The notes beneath the pieces were generated by a model that did not search any database, had not been told where the DNA came from, and saw only the letters and a list, made by a program, of their open reading frames with translations. The position numbers were made by a program, and so were the translations under genes. A stretch of DNA of 39,466 bases from Nanobdellota archaeon (GTDB lineage: Archaea; Nanobdellota; Nanobdellia; Woesearchaeales; GW2011-AR9): contig JAHJGQ010000100.1 in NCBI GenBank assembly GCA_018824365.1, forward strand, positions 1-39,466, given 5' to 3'. This document shows positions 54 through 39,466 of the stretch, piece after piece; positions within the stretch are counted from its first letter, which is position 1; every line of letters starts with the position of its first letter.

Positions 54-1316
54 CTAAAAAATAATAACCTCCTTTATTTTCTTTACTCTTTCTTTAACAT
101 AATCGTCTCTTATCAAGTTCTTCATGAAATCTTCCAATTTAGGGTTTTTATTCTTTATCTTGGCATAGATCTTACCATTTTCTTGGAAAGCATCTTTATT
201 CTTTTTCTTAAAATCTTTAACGAACTCTTTCATCTTTAGAGGCGGACCTGCCCTTAGCTCAAACTTAGGCAGCTCTTTTTTCGCTAATAAAAAAAACATG
301 ATCGCTTCATTTTCTTCTTTGTTCTCTTTCCATCTCCATCCAGATCTTTTGATATCAAATTGCGTGAGTTTCCTTTCCAGATGATTGAAGACTTTTAACA
401 ATTTACTTCCTACAACATCCTCCTTGCCTTTTAGGGCATCTAACTGTAAAAAGACAATGTTCTGTTTTTTTTGCTCTGCTTCTCTATTTAATTTATCTAA
501 ATTGATAATCTCTTTTTGAAATAAATTTTTGCTGGGTTTCTTCAAGTATTCCTTAGCAAGTTTCCTGAACAGTAAGTATTTTTCATTTGAAAGGGCGGCA
601 GCGGCGTTCCTGTTTTTGTCAACCGGATCTACAATAATTATCGGTGATTGAAGTTTTGAATTATTGATATGAAATAAAGCGGTCTTTTTTGTATAAAATT
701 TAGACGGATCAACTATTTCTTTATTACCCCATTTTTGTGATGCTTTCAAAAGAGCTTCAAAAGAACCATAATTGATGGTTAGTATCTCTAATACATAACC
801 GCTGAAACCGCTGATGTATGATTCTGCTCCATAAAGATTGTTGGCTTTACAGAATTGTTTAATCAGTCTGATCTCATTTTTTATCTTTTTATCATGTTTA
901 TTGACCCATCTAGAATGAAGAGGAGAGATGTCGGTGATATTGATGGCTTGTTCAGCTTTGTTAATCTTTAAAATGGGAACAATTTCCAAATTAAAGTTCT
1001 GATAAGTTGTTTTGAAATAGTCTCTGCTTCCATGAACTTTCTCTATCTTGATTTTAGGAAAAACTTTCTTTAATATTGGTTCAAGAATTTCTGATAATTG
1101 ATCGGATTTAGCTGAATATCTCTTATAATCGAATAAGACAAAAATATCAATGTCGTGATCCCCCGATAGCCATGTGCCTTTAGCACCACTGCCACCCAAA
1201 ATAGCTTCTGCATATTTAAGCTTGGAGTTCAATTTTTTGATGAATAATGAAGTGATTGATTTTACTTTGTCTGATTCTTTTTTACTCGGTTTTATTATTT
1301 CTAATATGTCTTTCAT
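54..1316 (-). CDS. cca: CCA-adding enzyme (archaeal class I tRNA nucleotidyltransferase)
   Basis: 420-aa ORF. The N-terminal GGSGAKGTWLSGDHDIDIFV matches the class I nucleotidyltransferase G-S/D-x-D signature. Length and layout are typical of archaeal Cca. Confidence 0.85.
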   Translation of the reverse strand: MKDILEIIKPSKKESDKVKSITSLFIKKLNSKLKYAEAILGGSGAKGTWLSGDHDIDIFVLFDYKRYSAKSDQLSEILEPILKKVFPKIKIEKVHGSRDYFKTTYQNFNLEIVPILKINKAEQAINITDISPLHSRWVNKHDKKIKNEIRLIKQFCKANNLYGAESYISGFSGYVLEILTINYGSFEALLKASQKWGNKEIVDPSKFYTKKTALFHINNSKLQSPIIIVDPVDKNRNAAAALSNEKYLLFRKLAKEYLKKPSKNLFQKEIINLDKLNREAEQKKQNIVFLQLDALKGKEDVVGSKLLKVFNHLERKLTQFDIKRSGWRWKENKEENEAIMFFLLAKKELPKFELRAGPPLKMKEFVKDFKKKNKDAFQENGKIYAKIKNKNPKLEDFMKNLIRDDYVKERVKKIKEVIIF

Positions 1317-4612: not shown

Positions 4613-4751
4613 TTTTTTTATGTTTTTAATAAATCTATTGCCTTTTTTAATCTTTCTTTTTTGTTTTTCCTGAACAAGCTTTAATTGTTTATTTTATGGT
4701 TTCTTTTTCAAAAGCGATATCCTTATATTATCATGAAGATTTCTAAATGAT

Positions 4752-5273
4752 ATGGATTTTTTTGCACATGGCCTTTGGAGTTATATCTTTTTTAATAAGA
4801 CTAAAAAGCCATGGTTGGCAGTTATCTTTGGTCTTCTTCCAGATACAATCTCTTGGGGATTATATTTTGTGTTTAATCTTCTGACTGGTAGCATAAATTC
4901 CGGCCCGCCTATTGTTGAAAATATTCCTGGGTGGGTATTTGGTCTTTACGGATTAGGACATAGTATCATTGTTGCTGTTTTAGTTATCTTGATTGTCTCT
5001 TTAATCATAAAAAAAGTTCCTATATTCATGTTAACATGGCCTGTTGCAATTGTGATGGACATCTTTACTCATACAAGAGAATTTTTACCGACACCTTTCT
5101 TGTGGCCGGTATCTGATTGGAAATTTCCGGGCATAAGCTGGGGAACTAAAACATTTATAATCGTGAATTATTCTTTGATAATTGTTTGTCTAGGTTATAT
5201 CTTTTTGAATAATAAAACAACGTTTTTTAAGAGATTTAGAACGAAAAAGTTGAAACCTAAAAATAGAAATTAA
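4752..5273 (+). CDS. Integral membrane protein (possibly a DUF457-like membrane hydrolase)
   Basis: 173-aa hydrophobic ORF with His residues near the N-terminus (FFAHG) and at FTHT. Confidence 0.5.
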   Translation: MDFFAHGLWSYIFFNKTKKPWLAVIFGLLPDTISWGLYFVFNLLTGSINSGPPIVENIPGWVFGLYGLGHSIIVAVLVILIVSLIIKKVPIFMLTWPVAIVMDIFTHTREFLPTPFLWPVSDWKFPGISWGTKTFIIVNYSLIIVCLGYIFLNNKTTFFKRFRTKKLKPKNRN

Positions 5274-5302: not shown

Positions 5303-5767
5303 TTATTCTTCATCAGATTCTTCTCTTCTAATAACTTTAACTGCATCCATCTTTACGGTGATTGGAATTGGTACGGCAGCTTCCAGTAACTCTACGACGA
5401 TATCTTCTTTTTGCTTATTGATCCTGATAACTTTAGCGTTTTCCCGCTTAAAAGGTCCAGAGATGATCTCAACAATATCGTTTTTCTTTATGTTCATCTC
5501 TACTTTTACTTGCTCAAGCATATGTTCAATTTCAGGATATGGTATCTCCTGTGGAAGCAGACCCCTTGAATAAGGTACTCCTTGTAAAGTGATTTCTGCA
5601 TCTAATTTTGAGGTTGCTTCTATAAAGATGTATCCTCTCATTCCATGCGGTCGGATGACTGTAATGATGCTTGAATTTGAATCCCGCTGTAGTTTTGAGA
5701 TTAGATAATCAACTACTTGGTCTTCCCTGTTAGCAGCAGTTCTTAAACCGAATATAGATGTTTCCAT
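5303..5767 (-). CDS. spt5: Transcription elongation factor Spt5 (NusG homologue)
   Basis: NGN-like N-terminus plus a KOW motif (IVEIISGPFKRENAKVIRI). Lies directly downstream of secE. Confidence 0.85.
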   Translation of the reverse strand: METSIFGLRTAANREDQVVDYLISKLQRDSNSSIITVIRPHGMRGYIFIEATSKLDAEITLQGVPYSRGLLPQEIPYPEIEHMLEQVKVEMNIKKNDIVEIISGPFKRENAKVIRINKQKEDIVVELLEAAVPIPITVKMDAVKVIRREESDEE

Positions 5768-8935: not shown

Positions 8936-9637
8936 TTACCTCACTTTTTCATAATCGCTTTTCTTCAAATCTCCTAAATAATTATTCATCCATTGTTTGA
9001 TCCAGAAAATTGTTGCTTTTGTCAAACCCCACTTCTTGAATCTTCTCATTGATGTTGTTACATTGGTGTCAATGCATTTAAACTTTTTTCCTGTTTTATT
9101 TTTAAGTTCAATTATTAACTTGCGATGCTCTTTAACGATAATCTCTGGATTGTAGCCTTTAACATTATTAAAATCTTCTTTGCGGCAGATCAAAGCGCCG
9201 CTGCAACCATTATAGATATTTGTAGAGTTGTAAAGATTCTTGAACTTCATCGCTAATCTGTATTTTAAATTATCAGAATCAGGAAGAACTTTAGTTGTAG
9301 CGACTGAATATTCTGATGAGAACTGTTCATTGATCTTTTGCAGCGAATCATCCTCTAAAGTTGTGTCGGCATCTAAAAAGAGAAAAATTTCTCCTTGCGC
9401 CTCAAAAGCTCCCGAATTTCTGGCAATACACACGTTAGCTTTAGATAAAGAGAGATGTTTAGTTTTATCATTTAATCTTTTTTTAACAATTTCTTCTGTT
9501 TTATCAGTACAGCCGTTAGTAACAACTATTGTTTCATAGTTTTGATAAGTTTGATTTTTTATACTATGTAATGTTTTTTTAATATACTCTTCTTCATTAT
9601 GAGCGGGAATTATGATTGAGAATTTTGGAGGCATCAC
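8936..9637 (-). CDS. Family 2 glycosyltransferase
   Basis: FSIIIPAHNEEEYI start and a DxD motif in LFLDADT. Confidence 0.8.
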   Translation of the reverse strand: MMPPKFSIIIPAHNEEEYIKKTLHSIKNQTYQNYETIVVTNGCTDKTEEIVKKRLNDKTKHLSLSKANVCIARNSGAFEAQGEIFLFLDADTTLEDDSLQKINEQFSSEYSVATTKVLPDSDNLKYRLAMKFKNLYNSTNIYNGCSGALICRKEDFNNVKGYNPEIIVKEHRKLIIELKNKTGKKFKCIDTNVTTSMRRFKKWGLTKATIFWIKQWMNNYLGDLKKSDYEKVR

Positions 9638-9800
9638 AGTTTGAAGAAAGAAATTTATTTTAAAGAATTACTATATTGGAAAATATATGTTGAAGTTGTG
9701 GTGAAGTGTTATTAAAGCGCTTTTTTTATGGTTTGATTTTTTATAGTTCAGCCAAATAAATCCATAAATTTTTATAAAATCGTATTTTTTTTTCTTAATC

Positions 9801-10118
9801 ATGGAAACAATAAGAATCGAAAAGAAAGTCTGGCCGGAATATTTCCAGAAAATAATCGACGAAAAGAAGACTTATGAATTAAGGCTTGCTGATTGGGTAT
9901 GTAAAGAAGGAGATTTGTTGGTCCTTAAAGAATGGAATCCAAAAACGAAAGAATTTACCGGAAGAGTTGTTGAGAAAGAAGTGACTTACGTCGGTAAAAC
10001 AAAACACATGAATTTTTGGTCAAAGGAAGATGTGGAAAAGTATGGTTTTCAGGTAATATCGTTTAAATCAAATAAGCAGAAATCTCCTGGATTAATCCTT
10101 GGAGATGAATGCTATTAA
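9801..10118 (+). CDS. DUF3850 / ASCH-like PUA-fold protein
   Basis: WPEYFQKIIDEKKTYELRLADW...GDLLVLKEW...FTGR...VTYV matches the remembered DUF3850 pattern. Confidence 0.6.
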   Translation: METIRIEKKVWPEYFQKIIDEKKTYELRLADWVCKEGDLLVLKEWNPKTKEFTGRVVEKEVTYVGKTKHMNFWSKEDVEKYGFQVISFKSNKQKSPGLILGDECY

Positions 10119-36205: not shown

Positions 36206-36268
36206 ATTATCACCTATTTATTATGGATTGATCAATTGTTTAAAATACTTTGTGGTTTTTCTTAGCTA

Positions 36269-36413
36269 GGCTTTGTAGAAACCCCTGCCAAATAGCGAGT
36301 GAGCACAAGACTATTCGTGAGACAAGCCATGCCCTCTTCTTCGGAAATCACTTCAACTTTGGAGCAATTAGCTAATCAAAAGAGGGTGCGAACGGAAGGG
36401 TTTCTACAGAGCC
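36269..36413 (+). ncRNA. Unassigned structured RNA candidate (16-bp closing stem)
   Basis: GGCTTTGTAGAAACCC (36269-36284) pairs with GGGTTTCTACAGAGCC (36398-36413). The single G.T pair is valid only on the + strand. An inner 7-bp stem CCCTCTT/AAGAGGG is also present. Confidence 0.4.
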
Positions 36414-36528
36414 TCTTAACTATTGAAGTTTTGCGGATTTTCAAGTTTTAAGTATAAAATACTTTGTCTGGTATTCGAAATTTAAGCTTATTTTCCAAAA
36501 AACGCAAAACATCAGTTAACTAGAAAAG

Positions 36529-36537
36529 TTTTTAAAA
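36529..36537 (+). promoter_or_regulatory. Candidate TATA box for tRNA-Thr
   Basis: TTTTTAAAA lies 25-33 nt upstream of tRNA position 1, with a purine-rich stretch just upstream. Confidence 0.35.
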
Positions 36538-36580
36538 CAAGCCGATTTTTTGTGAATCAGTGCCCCTGTGGCCTAGTGGT

Positions 36581-36599
36581 AAGGTCTACACCTCACTAA
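36581..36599 (+). other. tRNA-Thr intron 1 (19 nt, D-loop, position 20/21)
   Basis: AAGGTCTACACCTCACTAA. Central helix AGTG:CACT, bulges GTA and AAA, helix AGGT/ACCT with loop CTAC, flanked by the D stem. Confidence 0.75.
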
Positions 36600-36607
36600 A
36601 TGGCGTT

Positions 36608-36626
36608 AAGACAAAAGTCTCGCTAA
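36608..36626 (+). other. tRNA-Thr intron 2 (19 nt, anticodon stem, position 28/29)
   Basis: AAGACAAAAGTCTCGCTAA. Central helix GGCG:CGCT, bulges TTA and AAA, helix AGAC/GTCT with loop AAAA. Splicing rebuilds TTACC. Confidence 0.75.
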
Positions 36627-36657
36627 ACCTTGGTAAGGTAAAGGTCCCGAGTTCAAA

Positions 36658-36703
36658 TGCAGTCACTAGCGTTCGGTATTTTCCTTCGCTATGGCTCGGA
36701 AAG
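36658..36703 (+). other. tRNA-Thr intron 3 (46 nt, T-loop, position 59/60)
   Basis: The T stem CCGAG/CTCGG flanks a 3-4-bp central helix (TTC:GAA) and bulges AAT and AGT. The junction is ambiguous by 1 nt. Confidence 0.6.
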
Positions 36704-36717
36704 TCTCGGCAGGGGCT

Positions 36718-36723
36718 TTTTTT
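36718..36723 (+). terminator. Oligo-T tract after tRNA-Thr
   Basis: A run of T directly follows the discriminator base. Confidence 0.4.
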
Positions 36724-36777
36724 AATGTTTTTAATAATACAAATATTAATTAATACGCTCTTTTTTGTTTATGATTA

Positions 36778-37834: not shown

Positions 37835-39466
37835 ATGCTTGATTACGGAATTATTGGGAATTGTGTGACTTGTGCACTTATTAAAAAAAATGCTTCTATC
37901 GATTGGATGTGTTTTCCGACTTTTAGCAGTCTAAGCATCTTTGCAAAATTGTTGGATGAGAATAAAGGCGGTTCTTTAGAGATCAAGCCCATTGGAAATT
38001 ACGAAATAATTCAGCGCTATCTTCCAAATACAGCCATATTGGAAACTACTTTTTCTTCTGCAAAGAATGTGTTTGTTGTTTATGATTTTTTTCCAAGATA
38101 TAAAAAATTAACAAAGAAAAAATATGAAAAGTTGATTAAGCTGAATAATCTGATTAGAATCATCAAGCCATTGAAAGGAAAACCGAAAATAAGAATCAAG
38201 TATTGTCCAAAACCAAATTATGCTCTTGAAGAATCTAATCTTGTCGAAAAAAATGAAACTATTGTCTGTTCCTTTCTAGGGCAGAAAATAGTCTTTAATT
38301 CAAATATTTCTTATGATGACATCATCCATTCTAAAGAGATACTATTAGATAAAGCAAAATATTTAGCTTTAGGTGAAGAGAATGATTTTAGTTTAAGGAG
38401 ATGCTATAAATTACTTCAGGCAACAAAAAAGTATTGGCAGGAATGGTGCAAAACATTAGTTGTTCCTAAGAAGAATAAAGAAGTTATTGTCCGTTCTGCA
38501 ATAACATTGAAACTTCTTACTTATAGCAGGACTGGTGCTGTTATTGCAGCTGCTACAACTTCTGTACCTGAAGAGATCGGCACTGACAGAACATTTGATT
38601 ACCGTTATTGCTGGGTAAGAGATGCTGCTCTTTGTGTCGATGCGCTTAAGAAAATAGGCAGAAATTATGAACCGAAAAAACTCATGGAATTTATCATTAC
38701 CCTTGCTTTAAAGAATGATTACCTTCAAATAATGTATGGGATCGAGGGTGAAATCAGTCTGGATGAAAGATCATTAAACCATCTGGATGGATTTAAAGGT
38801 TCTAAACCCATACGTATCGGCAATGCTGCATTTAATCAGGCGCAGCATGATATCTATGGTGAGATATTAGATATCATTTATCTTTATTTTGTATATTATG
38901 AGTATGAGAAAAAACTTACAAAAAAGTATTGGCGTTTTATCTGTTATGTTGTTAATCAGATTAAATCTAATTGGGAAAAGCCTGATTCAGGAATTTGGGA
39001 ATTTCGAGGACAGTATAAACATTATGTTTATTCCAAATTAATGTGTTATGTTGGAGTTGATCGGGCCATACTTATCGCTAAGCATTATAATAAAGATGAA
39101 AAAATCATTCAAGAATGGATGGAACTAAAAGAAAATATTAAAAAAGAAATTTTAGAAAAAGGTTATAATGATAATGTTAAGTCTTTTACGATGTATTATG
39201 GAAGTGAGAATCTTGATGCATCGCTATTGCAGATGACATATCATGAATTTCTTAAGAATGATGATTTGCAATTGATTGACACAGTCAAAAATATCTATAA
39301 ACACCTTTGTGATGGTTATTTAGTGCAGCGTTATAAGATCAAAGATGATTTTGGTAAATCTAAAAGTGCTTTTACAATCTGTTCGTTTTGGCTGATCGAT
39401 GCTCTTTATTATATCGGTGAAGAGAAGAAAGCAAGAAATCTGTATCAAAGACTGATAAAAAAAGCA
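37835..39466 (+). CDS. Glycoside hydrolase family 15 (glucoamylase/trehalase-like), 3'-truncated by the window edge
   Basis: The frame is open from ATG 37835 to the end of the window (544 codons). Motifs YGIIGNCVTCALI..IDWMCFPTFSS, YRYCWVRDAA, GNAAFNQAQHDIYGE and GIWEFRG. Absent from the ORF track because no stop codon is reached. Confidence 0.85.
   Translation, partial: MLDYGIIGNCVTCALIKKNASIDWMCFPTFSSLSIFAKLLDENKGGSLEIKPIGNYEIIQRYLPNTAILETTFSSAKNVFVVYDFFPRYKKLTKKKYEKLIKLNNLIRIIKPLKGKPKIRIKYCPKPNYALEESNLVEKNETIVCSFLGQKIVFNSNISYDDIIHSKEILLDKAKYLALGEENDFSLRRCYKLLQATKKYWQEWCKTLVVPKKNKEVIVRSAITLKLLTYSRTGAVIAAATTSVPEEIGTDRTFDYRYCWVRDAALCVDALKKIGRNYEPKKLMEFIITLALKNDYLQIMYGIEGEISLDERSLNHLDGFKGSKPIRIGNAAFNQAQHDIYGEILDIIYLYFVYYEYEKKLTKKYWRFICYVVNQIKSNWEKPDSGIWEFRGQYKHYVYSKLMCYVGVDRAILIAKHYNKDEKIIQEWMELKENIKKEILEKGYNDNVKSFTMYYGSENLDASLLQMTYHEFLKNDDLQLIDTVKNIYKHLCDGYLVQRYKIKDDFGKSKSAFTICSFWLIDALYYIGEEKKARNLYQRLIKKA

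Follow-up and report, generated by a model that had tools for sequence, protein, structure and literature searches.

The window analyzed here is a stretch of 39,466 nucleotides from contig JAHJGQ010000100.1 of a Nanobdellota archaeon (assembly GCA_018824365.1), and the element of interest within it is a threonine tRNA gene, tRNA-Thr(GGU), whose four exons are separated by three introns of 19, 19 and 46 nucleotides (Table 1). The exons follow one another in tRNA order on one strand within 156 nucleotides; the gene is colinear, and neither split nor permuted. We found no evidence of a competing open reading frame at this locus. The window also encodes a class-I CCA-adding enzyme, FtsZ, Spt5, TruD, AspRS, AsnA and NurA, and the best homologues of the NurA protein, with 58-67% identity, are named Woesearchaeota/Nanoarchaeota. 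The host is an archaeon, and specifically a Woesearchaeota-like member of DPANN.

Table 1. Features of the tRNA-Thr(GGU) locus and other features on the same contig
Feature	Position (strand)	Size and location	Description
tRNA-Thr(GGU) locus	36562-36717 (+)	156 nt	Four exons and three introns
TATA-box-like element	36529-36537 (+)	Starts 33 nt upstream of tRNA position 1	TTTTTAAAA; putative promoter element
Exon 1	36562-36580 (+)	19 nt	GCCCCTGTGGCCTAGTGGT; acceptor 5' strand, U8, G9, D-stem 5' strand, D-loop to U20
Intron 1	36581-36599 (+)	19 nt, position 20/21	Minimal intron A-AGGU-CUAC-ACCU-CACU-AA with bulge-helix-bulge motif
Exon 2 (micro-exon)	36600-36607 (+)	8 nt	ATGGCGTT / AUGGCGUU; A21, D-stem 3' strand 22-25, G26, U27, U28
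Intron 2	36608-36626 (+)	19 nt, position 28/29, within anticodon stem	A-AGAC-AAAA-GUCU-CGCU-AA
Exon 3	36627-36657 (+)	31 nt, A29-A59	Rest of anticodon arm (GGU), variable loop AGGUC, T-stem 5' strand, T-loop to A59
Intron 3	36658-36703 (+)	46 nt, position 59/60 in T-loop	Interior is a long hairpin
Exon 4	36704-36717 (+)	14 nt	U60, T-stem 3' strand, acceptor 3' strand, discriminator U73
Oligo-T run	36718-36723 (+)	Six T's, directly after discriminator base	Overlapped by terminator-like match; likely archaeal transcription stop
tRNA-Arg(CCU)	11745-11558 (-)	Three introns	Spliced 75-mer is called tRNA-Arg(cct) by ARAGORN
tRNA-Arg(CCU) intron 1	11725-11707 (-)	19 nt, D-loop 19/20	Central helix H 3/4, inner helix h' 4 bp, outer helix 4 bp
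tRNA-Arg(CCU) intron 2	11687-11671 (-)	17 nt, canonical 37/38	H 3/4, h' 3 bp, outer helix 5 bp
tRNA-Arg(CCU) intron 3	11648-11572 (-)	77 nt, 59/60	H 4/4, outer helix 5 bp
tRNA-Arg(GCG)	L127 18232-18381 (-); record about 4629-4778	Upstream of window on same contig	Introns in D-loop (47 nt) and at 37/38 (29 nt)
CCA-adding enzyme, class I	54-1316 (-)		
Structured element	36262-36419 (+)	~150 nt	Between adenylate kinase gene and tRNA-Thr

When the exons are joined, the result is the 72-mer GCCCCTGTGGCCTAGTGGTATGGCGTTACCTTGGTAAGGTAAAGGTCCCGAGTTCAAATCTCGGCAGGGGCT, which ARAGORN calls as tRNA-Thr(ggt) with a standard cloverleaf. This product has a 7-bp acceptor stem, U8, A14, G18G19, G26, the anticodon loop UUGGUAA, the variable loop AGGUC, the T-loop UUCAAAU and a discriminator U, and all invariant tRNA positions are intact. 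The 3'-terminal CCA is not encoded. The exons have a G+C content of 57%, as compared with 33% for the window. A preliminary description of this DNA had proposed the same exon and intron coordinates and sizes, a 72-nucleotide tRNA-Thr(GGU) cloverleaf, and introns at positions 20/21, 28/29 and 59/60, and we agree with it on each of these. The gene is invisible to standard searches before its introns are taken out: ARAGORN called no tRNA in the whole unspliced 39.5-kb window, and Rfam gave no tRNA at gathering score in the unspliced window and none at E<=10 in 400 nucleotides around the locus. ARAGORN is lenient on the D arm, since 193 of 432 arbitrary D-region deletions of the tRNA-Arg(CCU) gene described below were still called as tRNAs. 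We rejected it as a test of junctions for this reason, and the D-region junctions rest instead on the splicing motifs and on related genes.

Archaeal tRNA introns are recognized here by the motif called bulge-helix-bulge (BHB), in which a central 4-bp helix lies between two 3-nucleotide bulges and each strand is cut after the second bulge nucleotide. In our register test, the last six nucleotides of the 5' exon must supply one strand of the central helix (H, four nucleotides) and two bulge nucleotides, and the last six nucleotides of the intron must likewise supply the opposite strand (H') and two bulge nucleotides. The strict form of the motif, hBHBh', which is the substrate of classical alpha4/alpha'2 EndA, additionally has each bulge flanked by an outer helix, h or h', that is 2 bp or longer. 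We find the BHB arrangement in register at all three junctions that the cloverleaf requires. In intron 1, H is AGUG/CACU with 4/4 pairs (36575-36578 with 36594-36597), h' is the 4-bp helix AGGU/ACCU (36582-36585 with 36590-36593), the bulges are GU|A and AA|A, and the D stem (3 bp after U.U) serves as outer helix. In intron 2, H is GGCG/CGCU with 4/4 pairs, one of them G.U (36602-36605 with 36621-36624), h' is the 4-bp helix AGAC/GUCU (36609-36612 with 36617-36620), and the bulges are UU|A and AA|A. In intron 3, H is UUCA/GGAA with 3/4 pairs, that is, 3 bp and A.G (36652-36655 with 36698-36701), with AA|U and AG|U as its bulges; the 5-bp T stem (36647-36651/36705-36709) acts as outer helix, and h' is a long interrupted hairpin. 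The strict form is not found throughout the gene.

The preliminary description had placed both 19-nucleotide inserts in a BHB with a 4-bp helix, with cuts after the second bulge nucleotide that coincide with the required junctions. Both introns have full 4/4 central helices and 3-nucleotide bulges in exact register, with the refinement that the motif of intron 2 is of a relaxed type. Intron 3 also lies in a BHB-like motif, beyond the two that had been described. Among random junction pairs in the window, a fraction of 5.9e-4 reach H=4 and h'>=4, and 1.7e-3 reach H>=3 with an outer helix >=5; as a product of per-junction rates, the joint chance of finding the BHB register at three fixed junctions is ~1e-8 to 1e-9. 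The sole shift-equivalent junctions (+1) have poor BHB scores. A fold constrained to contain the three BHB cores, the acceptor stem and the T stem has an energy of -53.2 kcal/mol, which is 3 above the minimum free energy of the locus (-56.2 kcal/mol), and shuffled sequences average -41.9 +/- 3.7 kcal/mol.

Related genes were collected with exon-3 pattern scans and by inspecting loci around homologues of the downstream NurA gene. A scan of a genome collection with a partly degenerate exon-3 pattern returned mostly Bacteroidota tRNA-Thr genes, with at least 11 usable archaeal loci among the matches listed; the genome of the window itself did not appear in that list. No tRNA was found upstream of the NurA homologues at loci L134, L135, L136 and L138. 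No gaps are needed to align the spliced sequence of the window with eight related tRNA-Thr(GGU) genes; the mean column identity is 92%, and the acceptor stem shows paired changes among the related genes. The 72-mer matches its relatives at 64-65 of 72 positions, including 64/72 for the intronless gene at L059, and exon 3 is 100% identical to the corresponding sequence of L005, L033, L057, L059 and L074. Removal of the introns thus leaves a canonical cloverleaf that is gap-free against intronless relatives.

Each of the predicted joins occurs as unbroken DNA in at least one relative. Junction 1 does so in L133, a locus syntenic with the window: its tRNA gene, which has a single intron at the canonical 37/38 position, lies upstream of a NurA gene with 65% identity to that of the window. 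In L133, the counterparts of exons 1 and 2 form the uninterrupted sequence GCCCCTGTGGCCTAGCGGTATGGCGTT, identical at 27/28 positions and retaining the unusual U13.U22; the contiguous counterpart of exon 1 reads GCCCCTGTGGCCTAGCGGT, and that of exon 2 with its neighbours reads GGTATGGCGTTGCA. Five tRNA-Thr(GGU) genes of Woesearchaeota and Pacearchaeota (L057, L059, L074, L065 and L070) are intronless among the matches listed. They read GCGTTACCTTGG (GTTACC) across join 28/29 and GTTCAAATCTCGG / TTCAAATCTCGG across join 59/60, except that L070 has TTCAAACCTCGG at the latter. Junction 2 is contiguous in these five genes as well as in L005 and L033, and junction 3 in L057, L059, L065, L074, L033 and L133. 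Intron 2 is absent from all nine of the other tRNA-Thr(GGU) genes compared, seven of which read GTTACC and two of which have a different anticodon stem. The gene at L005 has introns at 20/21 (31 nucleotides) and 59/60 (45 nucleotides), both in perfect hBHBh' motifs, and none at 28/29. Between the window and L005, an exon U16-intron A pair becomes C16-G, which is a compensatory change in the central helix of intron 1. L130, from a syntenic Woesearchaeota assembly, has three introns elsewhere, in the D-loop, at 37/38 and at 53/54. No clean BHB register could be placed for the D-loop introns of L033, L130 and L038.

The tRNA gene is identical in the three other assemblies that cover it (L001-L003), and the sole difference in a 331-nucleotide comparison is downstream, at position 36727. 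Contig JBDRBV010000055.1 (GCA_043822325.1) is near-identical to the window, with seven differences in 12.7 kb. Six of these fall within 70 nucleotides (38839-38908) in a glycoside hydrolase 15 gene, and the seventh is position 36727, just past the tRNA terminator.

A TATA-box-like element precedes the gene and an oligo-T run follows it. The motif TT[TA]TTAAA[GA], a pattern that we defined after inspecting the data, starts at -33/-32 in 3/3 tRNA genes of the contig and has only 18 occurrences over the two strands of the window.

The locus very probably represents a tRNA-Thr(GGU) gene that is functional and colinear, with three BHB introns at 20/21, 28/29 and 59/60, in a Woesearchaeota-like DPANN archaeon. 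This reading draws on sequence anatomy, BHB register, conservation, the presence and absence of introns among relatives, and the archaeal context; from it we infer that the gene is transcribed, which enzymes act on the precursor and in what order the introns are spliced.

Several points weigh against this reading. Pfam searches detected no EndA or RtcB gene in 57.7 kb of the contig (the window and its flanks). Intron 2 lacks an outer helix, both before and after removal of intron 1, and therefore has a relaxed HBh' motif instead of a strict hBHBh', and an A.G mismatch lies within the central helix of intron 3. Because of these two features, a classical alpha4 EndA of strict specificity might cut introns 2 and 3 poorly. 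Moreover, because the ends of introns 1 and 2 are similar, a further BHB, derived by hand, can be drawn within 36581-36626 that joins intron 1's 5' site to the 3' site of intron 2 (AGUG/CGCU, AGGU/GUCU), and cutting at this alternative motif would skip the 8-nucleotide exon 2. Together with the unconstrained minimum-energy structure, in which the BHB of intron 1 is not shown in register, these features would suit a functional gene whose insertions are handled otherwise, by means of different cut sites, frequent skipping of exon 2, or an extra factor for the relaxed intron 2. However, only the proposed junctions yield sequence that is contiguous in relatives, and the +1 shifts fare poorly as BHBs. 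Relaxed motifs are also known to be cut by broad-specificity EndAs (PMC5829648, PMC3239211), and DPANN are reported to have EndAs of this kind, with an L3 loop, in association with disrupted tRNA genes (PMC5829648), so that we regard handling of this kind as highly improbable.

Fossil pieces of tRNA-Thr beside the working copies in L033 and L130 indicate that genes are remodelled in this group, and in that setting the locus could be a decaying pseudogene, in which three insertions have left no working tRNA and another copy supplies the function. We nevertheless consider decay very unlikely. Random insertions would not all fall in BHB register, and the exons are undamaged, as seen in the identity of exon 3 to that of relatives, the 7/7 acceptor pairs and the intact invariant positions. 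The gene retains a positioned TATA-like box and oligo-T run, the two other tRNA genes of the contig share its architecture with no intron-free tRNA in 57.7 kb, and an exon-3 pattern scan of metagenome contigs revealed no second intact copy from the same samples. The leniency of ARAGORN toward D-region deletions also raises the question of whether AT-rich sequence could be trimmed by three free deletions into something that merely resembles a tRNA. The probability of this is negligible. The exons are far richer in G+C than the window and match real tRNA-Thr(GGU) genes at nearly nine-tenths of positions, and an anchor scan that looked for U8 and a T arm together with a 7-bp acceptor stem, over 39 kb and both strands, gave only two G+C-rich candidates in the window, namely tRNA-Thr(GGU) and tRNA-Arg(CCU). 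With the relatives' contiguous joins, the low joint chance of the BHB register effectively refutes a chance resemblance.

If the locus is a functional gene, as we favour, transcription would begin from the TATA-like box ~33 nucleotides upstream and stop at the oligo-T run past the discriminator base. In the resulting 156-nucleotide precursor, the acceptor and T stems would form and each intron would fold into its bulge-helix-bulge. EndA would cut after the second nucleotide of each 3-nucleotide bulge, at six sites in all, an RNA ligase of the RtcB type would join the exons, and CCA would be added by the CCA-adding enzyme encoded in the same window. Cleavage by EndA followed by ligation is the established route of archaeal tRNA splicing (PMC4090602, PMC3239211). 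The relaxed HBh' motif of intron 2, which lies within the anticodon stem, leads us to predict that the splicing endonuclease of this lineage has broad specificity.

The central helix of intron 2 uses G23-G26, and three of these bases belong to the D-stem 3' strand, which is the outer helix of intron 1. Because this strand is shared, the strict motifs of introns 1 and 2 cannot coexist, and splicing is probably stepwise, with intron 2 leaving before intron 1. Intron 1 has a strict hBHBh' only once the D stem forms, which could happen after intron 2 is removed, completing the motif. Any stepwise order would keep the 8-nucleotide exon covalently attached to a neighbour; simultaneous cutting alone would free it, held by ~5 base pairs.

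Two other tRNA genes on the contig are interrupted in a similar way. The tRNA-Arg(CCU) gene has a TATA-like box at -32 and was missed in unspliced form by both ARAGORN and Rfam; its predicted junctions are placed by BHB register. An arrangement of its D-loop intron with U20 in the exon gave no BHB, and the 19-nucleotide template of the Thr introns was then fitted. With tRNA-Arg(GCG), 3/3 tRNA genes of the contig contain introns (three, three and two), which makes eight introns in 57.7 kb for this small set of three genes, and the 57.7 kb yielded no tRNA free of introns. Three of the introns are 19 nucleotides long and have a common minimal layout of one base, a 4-bp hairpin with a tetraloop, a 4-nucleotide H' strand, and AA.

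These genes raise the tentative and rather doubtful possibility of a lineage in which essentially all tRNA genes are broken by two to three introns, more densely than in any published archaeon. What drives the intron load may be a family of minimal 19-nucleotide BHB mini-introns with the template N-4-tetraloop-4-H'-AA, and these mini-introns may spread by local duplication or transposition, with fast turnover. If such a lineage exists, it would offer a natural system for studying the gain and loss of BHB introns, and would explain tRNAs that are 'missing' from the genome bins of DPANN.

Sequence repeats within the locus hint at an origin of introns by local duplication, on the grounds of 9-mers shared between introns and exons, a common 3' motif, and the resemblance of introns 1 and 2, which are identical at 11/19 positions. 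The exact 9-mer TGGT|AAGGT at the boundary of exon 1 and intron 1 (36577-36585) recurs as the anticodon-loop stretch TGGTAAGGT (36631-36639), and AAAGTCTCG of intron 2 (36614-36622) recurs at the junction of intron 3 and exon 4 (36700-36708). At least two such 9-mer repeats arise in 1.1% of shuffles. A 3' motif resembling CTC-R-CTA is present in all three tRNA-Thr introns.

Related loci carry further traces of rearrangement. In L033 (about 5435-5738, -) and L130 (about 9405-9620, +), a 12-nucleotide copy of the tRNA-Thr 3' end lies 60-75 nucleotides downstream of the working gene. Just before the copy in L033 is a sequence that, with the T-loop, makes up a BHB of the 59/60 type; the arrangement resembles a fossil intron followed by an old 3' exon. 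Partial copies of the tRNA-Thr 5' end occur upstream in L033, L070 and L065. Across related genomes, tRNA-Thr(GGU) introns are found at 20/21, 28/29, 37/38, 53/54 and 59/60. Relatives with zero, one, two and three introns at shifting positions offer material for a study of intron gain and loss.

L130 also contains a second tRNA-Thr adjoining tRNA-Thr(GGU), at 9671-9761 (+), with the anticodon AGU, an 18-nucleotide canonical intron and an Rfam score of 53.2 bits. tRNAs with A34 have been reported in ARMAN-4 and ARMAN-5 (PMC3239211). Between the tRNA-Thr gene or genes and NurA, L130 (about 9800-9990) and L133 (about 2330-2520, +) share a conserved structured element of ~190 nucleotides, whose closing 12-bp stem is TTGCTTATCTCA / TGAGATAAGCAA and which has no Rfam match at gathering score. 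Within the window, a 17-bp stem, AGGCTTTGTAGAAACCC / GGGTTTCTACAGAGCCT, closes the structured element upstream of tRNA-Thr(GGU); the fold z-score of the element is -3.3, and TTTAAAA lies ~30 nucleotides upstream of it. Rfam returned chance-level matches only and no family for this element, which may represent a new small RNA. A search of the long introns for C/D-box guide RNAs, made by eye only, revealed no boxes.

The failure of standard tools is not confined to the tRNA-Thr(GGU) gene. ARAGORN and the Rfam tRNA model miss every multi-intron gene examined (the two of the window, a third on the same contig and three more at related loci), with the exception that ARAGORN miscalls the L005 gene as tRNA-Arg. 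Because such genes are missed, genome bins of these DPANN archaea will seem to lack tRNAs, which distorts estimates of completeness as well as conclusions on how far they depend on a host. In DPANN, Kaneta et al. found tRNA sets to be incomplete and recommended curation by hand (PMC5829648), and the tRNA-Thr locus is a concrete case of a tRNA missing from DPANN annotation. tRNAscan-SE 2.0 explicitly handles adjacent introns that need sequential removal (PMC8450103).

Disrupted tRNA genes are known in DPANN (PMC5829648), and the locus leaves the known splicing mechanism unchanged and is a further example of an established phenomenon. The published maximum for archaeal tRNA genes is three BHB introns (PMC3239211, PMC4033280, PMC8450103), which the three introns in 156 nucleotides found here equal and do not exceed. 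The preliminary description had also singled out the micro-exon as unusual. Its length of 8 nucleotides stands, but it is not the shortest known: in ARMAN-2 pre-tRNA-Pro(GGG), introns at 53/54 and 59/60 leave an exon of 6 nucleotides (PMC3239211). Three introns in one gene, and adjacent introns that depend on each other, have likewise been published.

The genes of Thermoproteales (Pyrobaculum, Thermofilum and Caldivirga) are similar in several respects, according to the accounts of Sugahara et al. 2007/2008 that are given in PMC4033280 and PMC8450103. As described there, these genes have up to three short non-canonical BHB introns, some so close together that the next BHB can form only after one has been removed, and similar intron sequences recur at different positions, all as observed here. 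The hosts differ, in that Thermoproteales are crenarchaea with an (alpha-beta)2 EndA, whereas the host of the tRNA-Thr gene is a mesophile-like, AT-rich DPANN archaeon. Thermoproteales have a mean of 0.84 introns per tRNA gene, with 71 introns in 46 genes in P. calidifontis (PMC8450103); the contig studied here has eight in three genes, which are too few for a claim to a record.

ARMAN-2 shares with the present case a DPANN host, an intron at 59/60, BHB motifs, and closely spaced introns that leave a micro-exon (6 nucleotides compared with 8). However, ARMAN-2 genes have one or two introns rather than three, and the micro-exon is in the T-loop in ARMAN-2, but here it spans from the 3' strand of the D stem up to the top of the anticodon stem. 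The EndA of ARMAN-2 is of the epsilon2 type. A tRNA-Thr with a BHB intron in the D-loop is also found in Aeropyrum pernix, as pre-tRNA-Thr2(UGU) (PMC3241643). This intron is removed in vitro by EndA alone, more slowly than a canonical intron (PMC3241643). The crenarchaeal gene has a single intron whose processing is biochemically verified, in contrast to the three introns here, which are deduced from sequence. Finally, a nuclear tRNA gene of a red alga resembles the tRNA-Thr(GGU) gene in having three BHB-type introns distributed over three arms of one gene, but it is served by the eukaryotic Sen complex and, unlike the archaeal gene, has one intron that lies at the canonical site of the anticodon arm or close to it.

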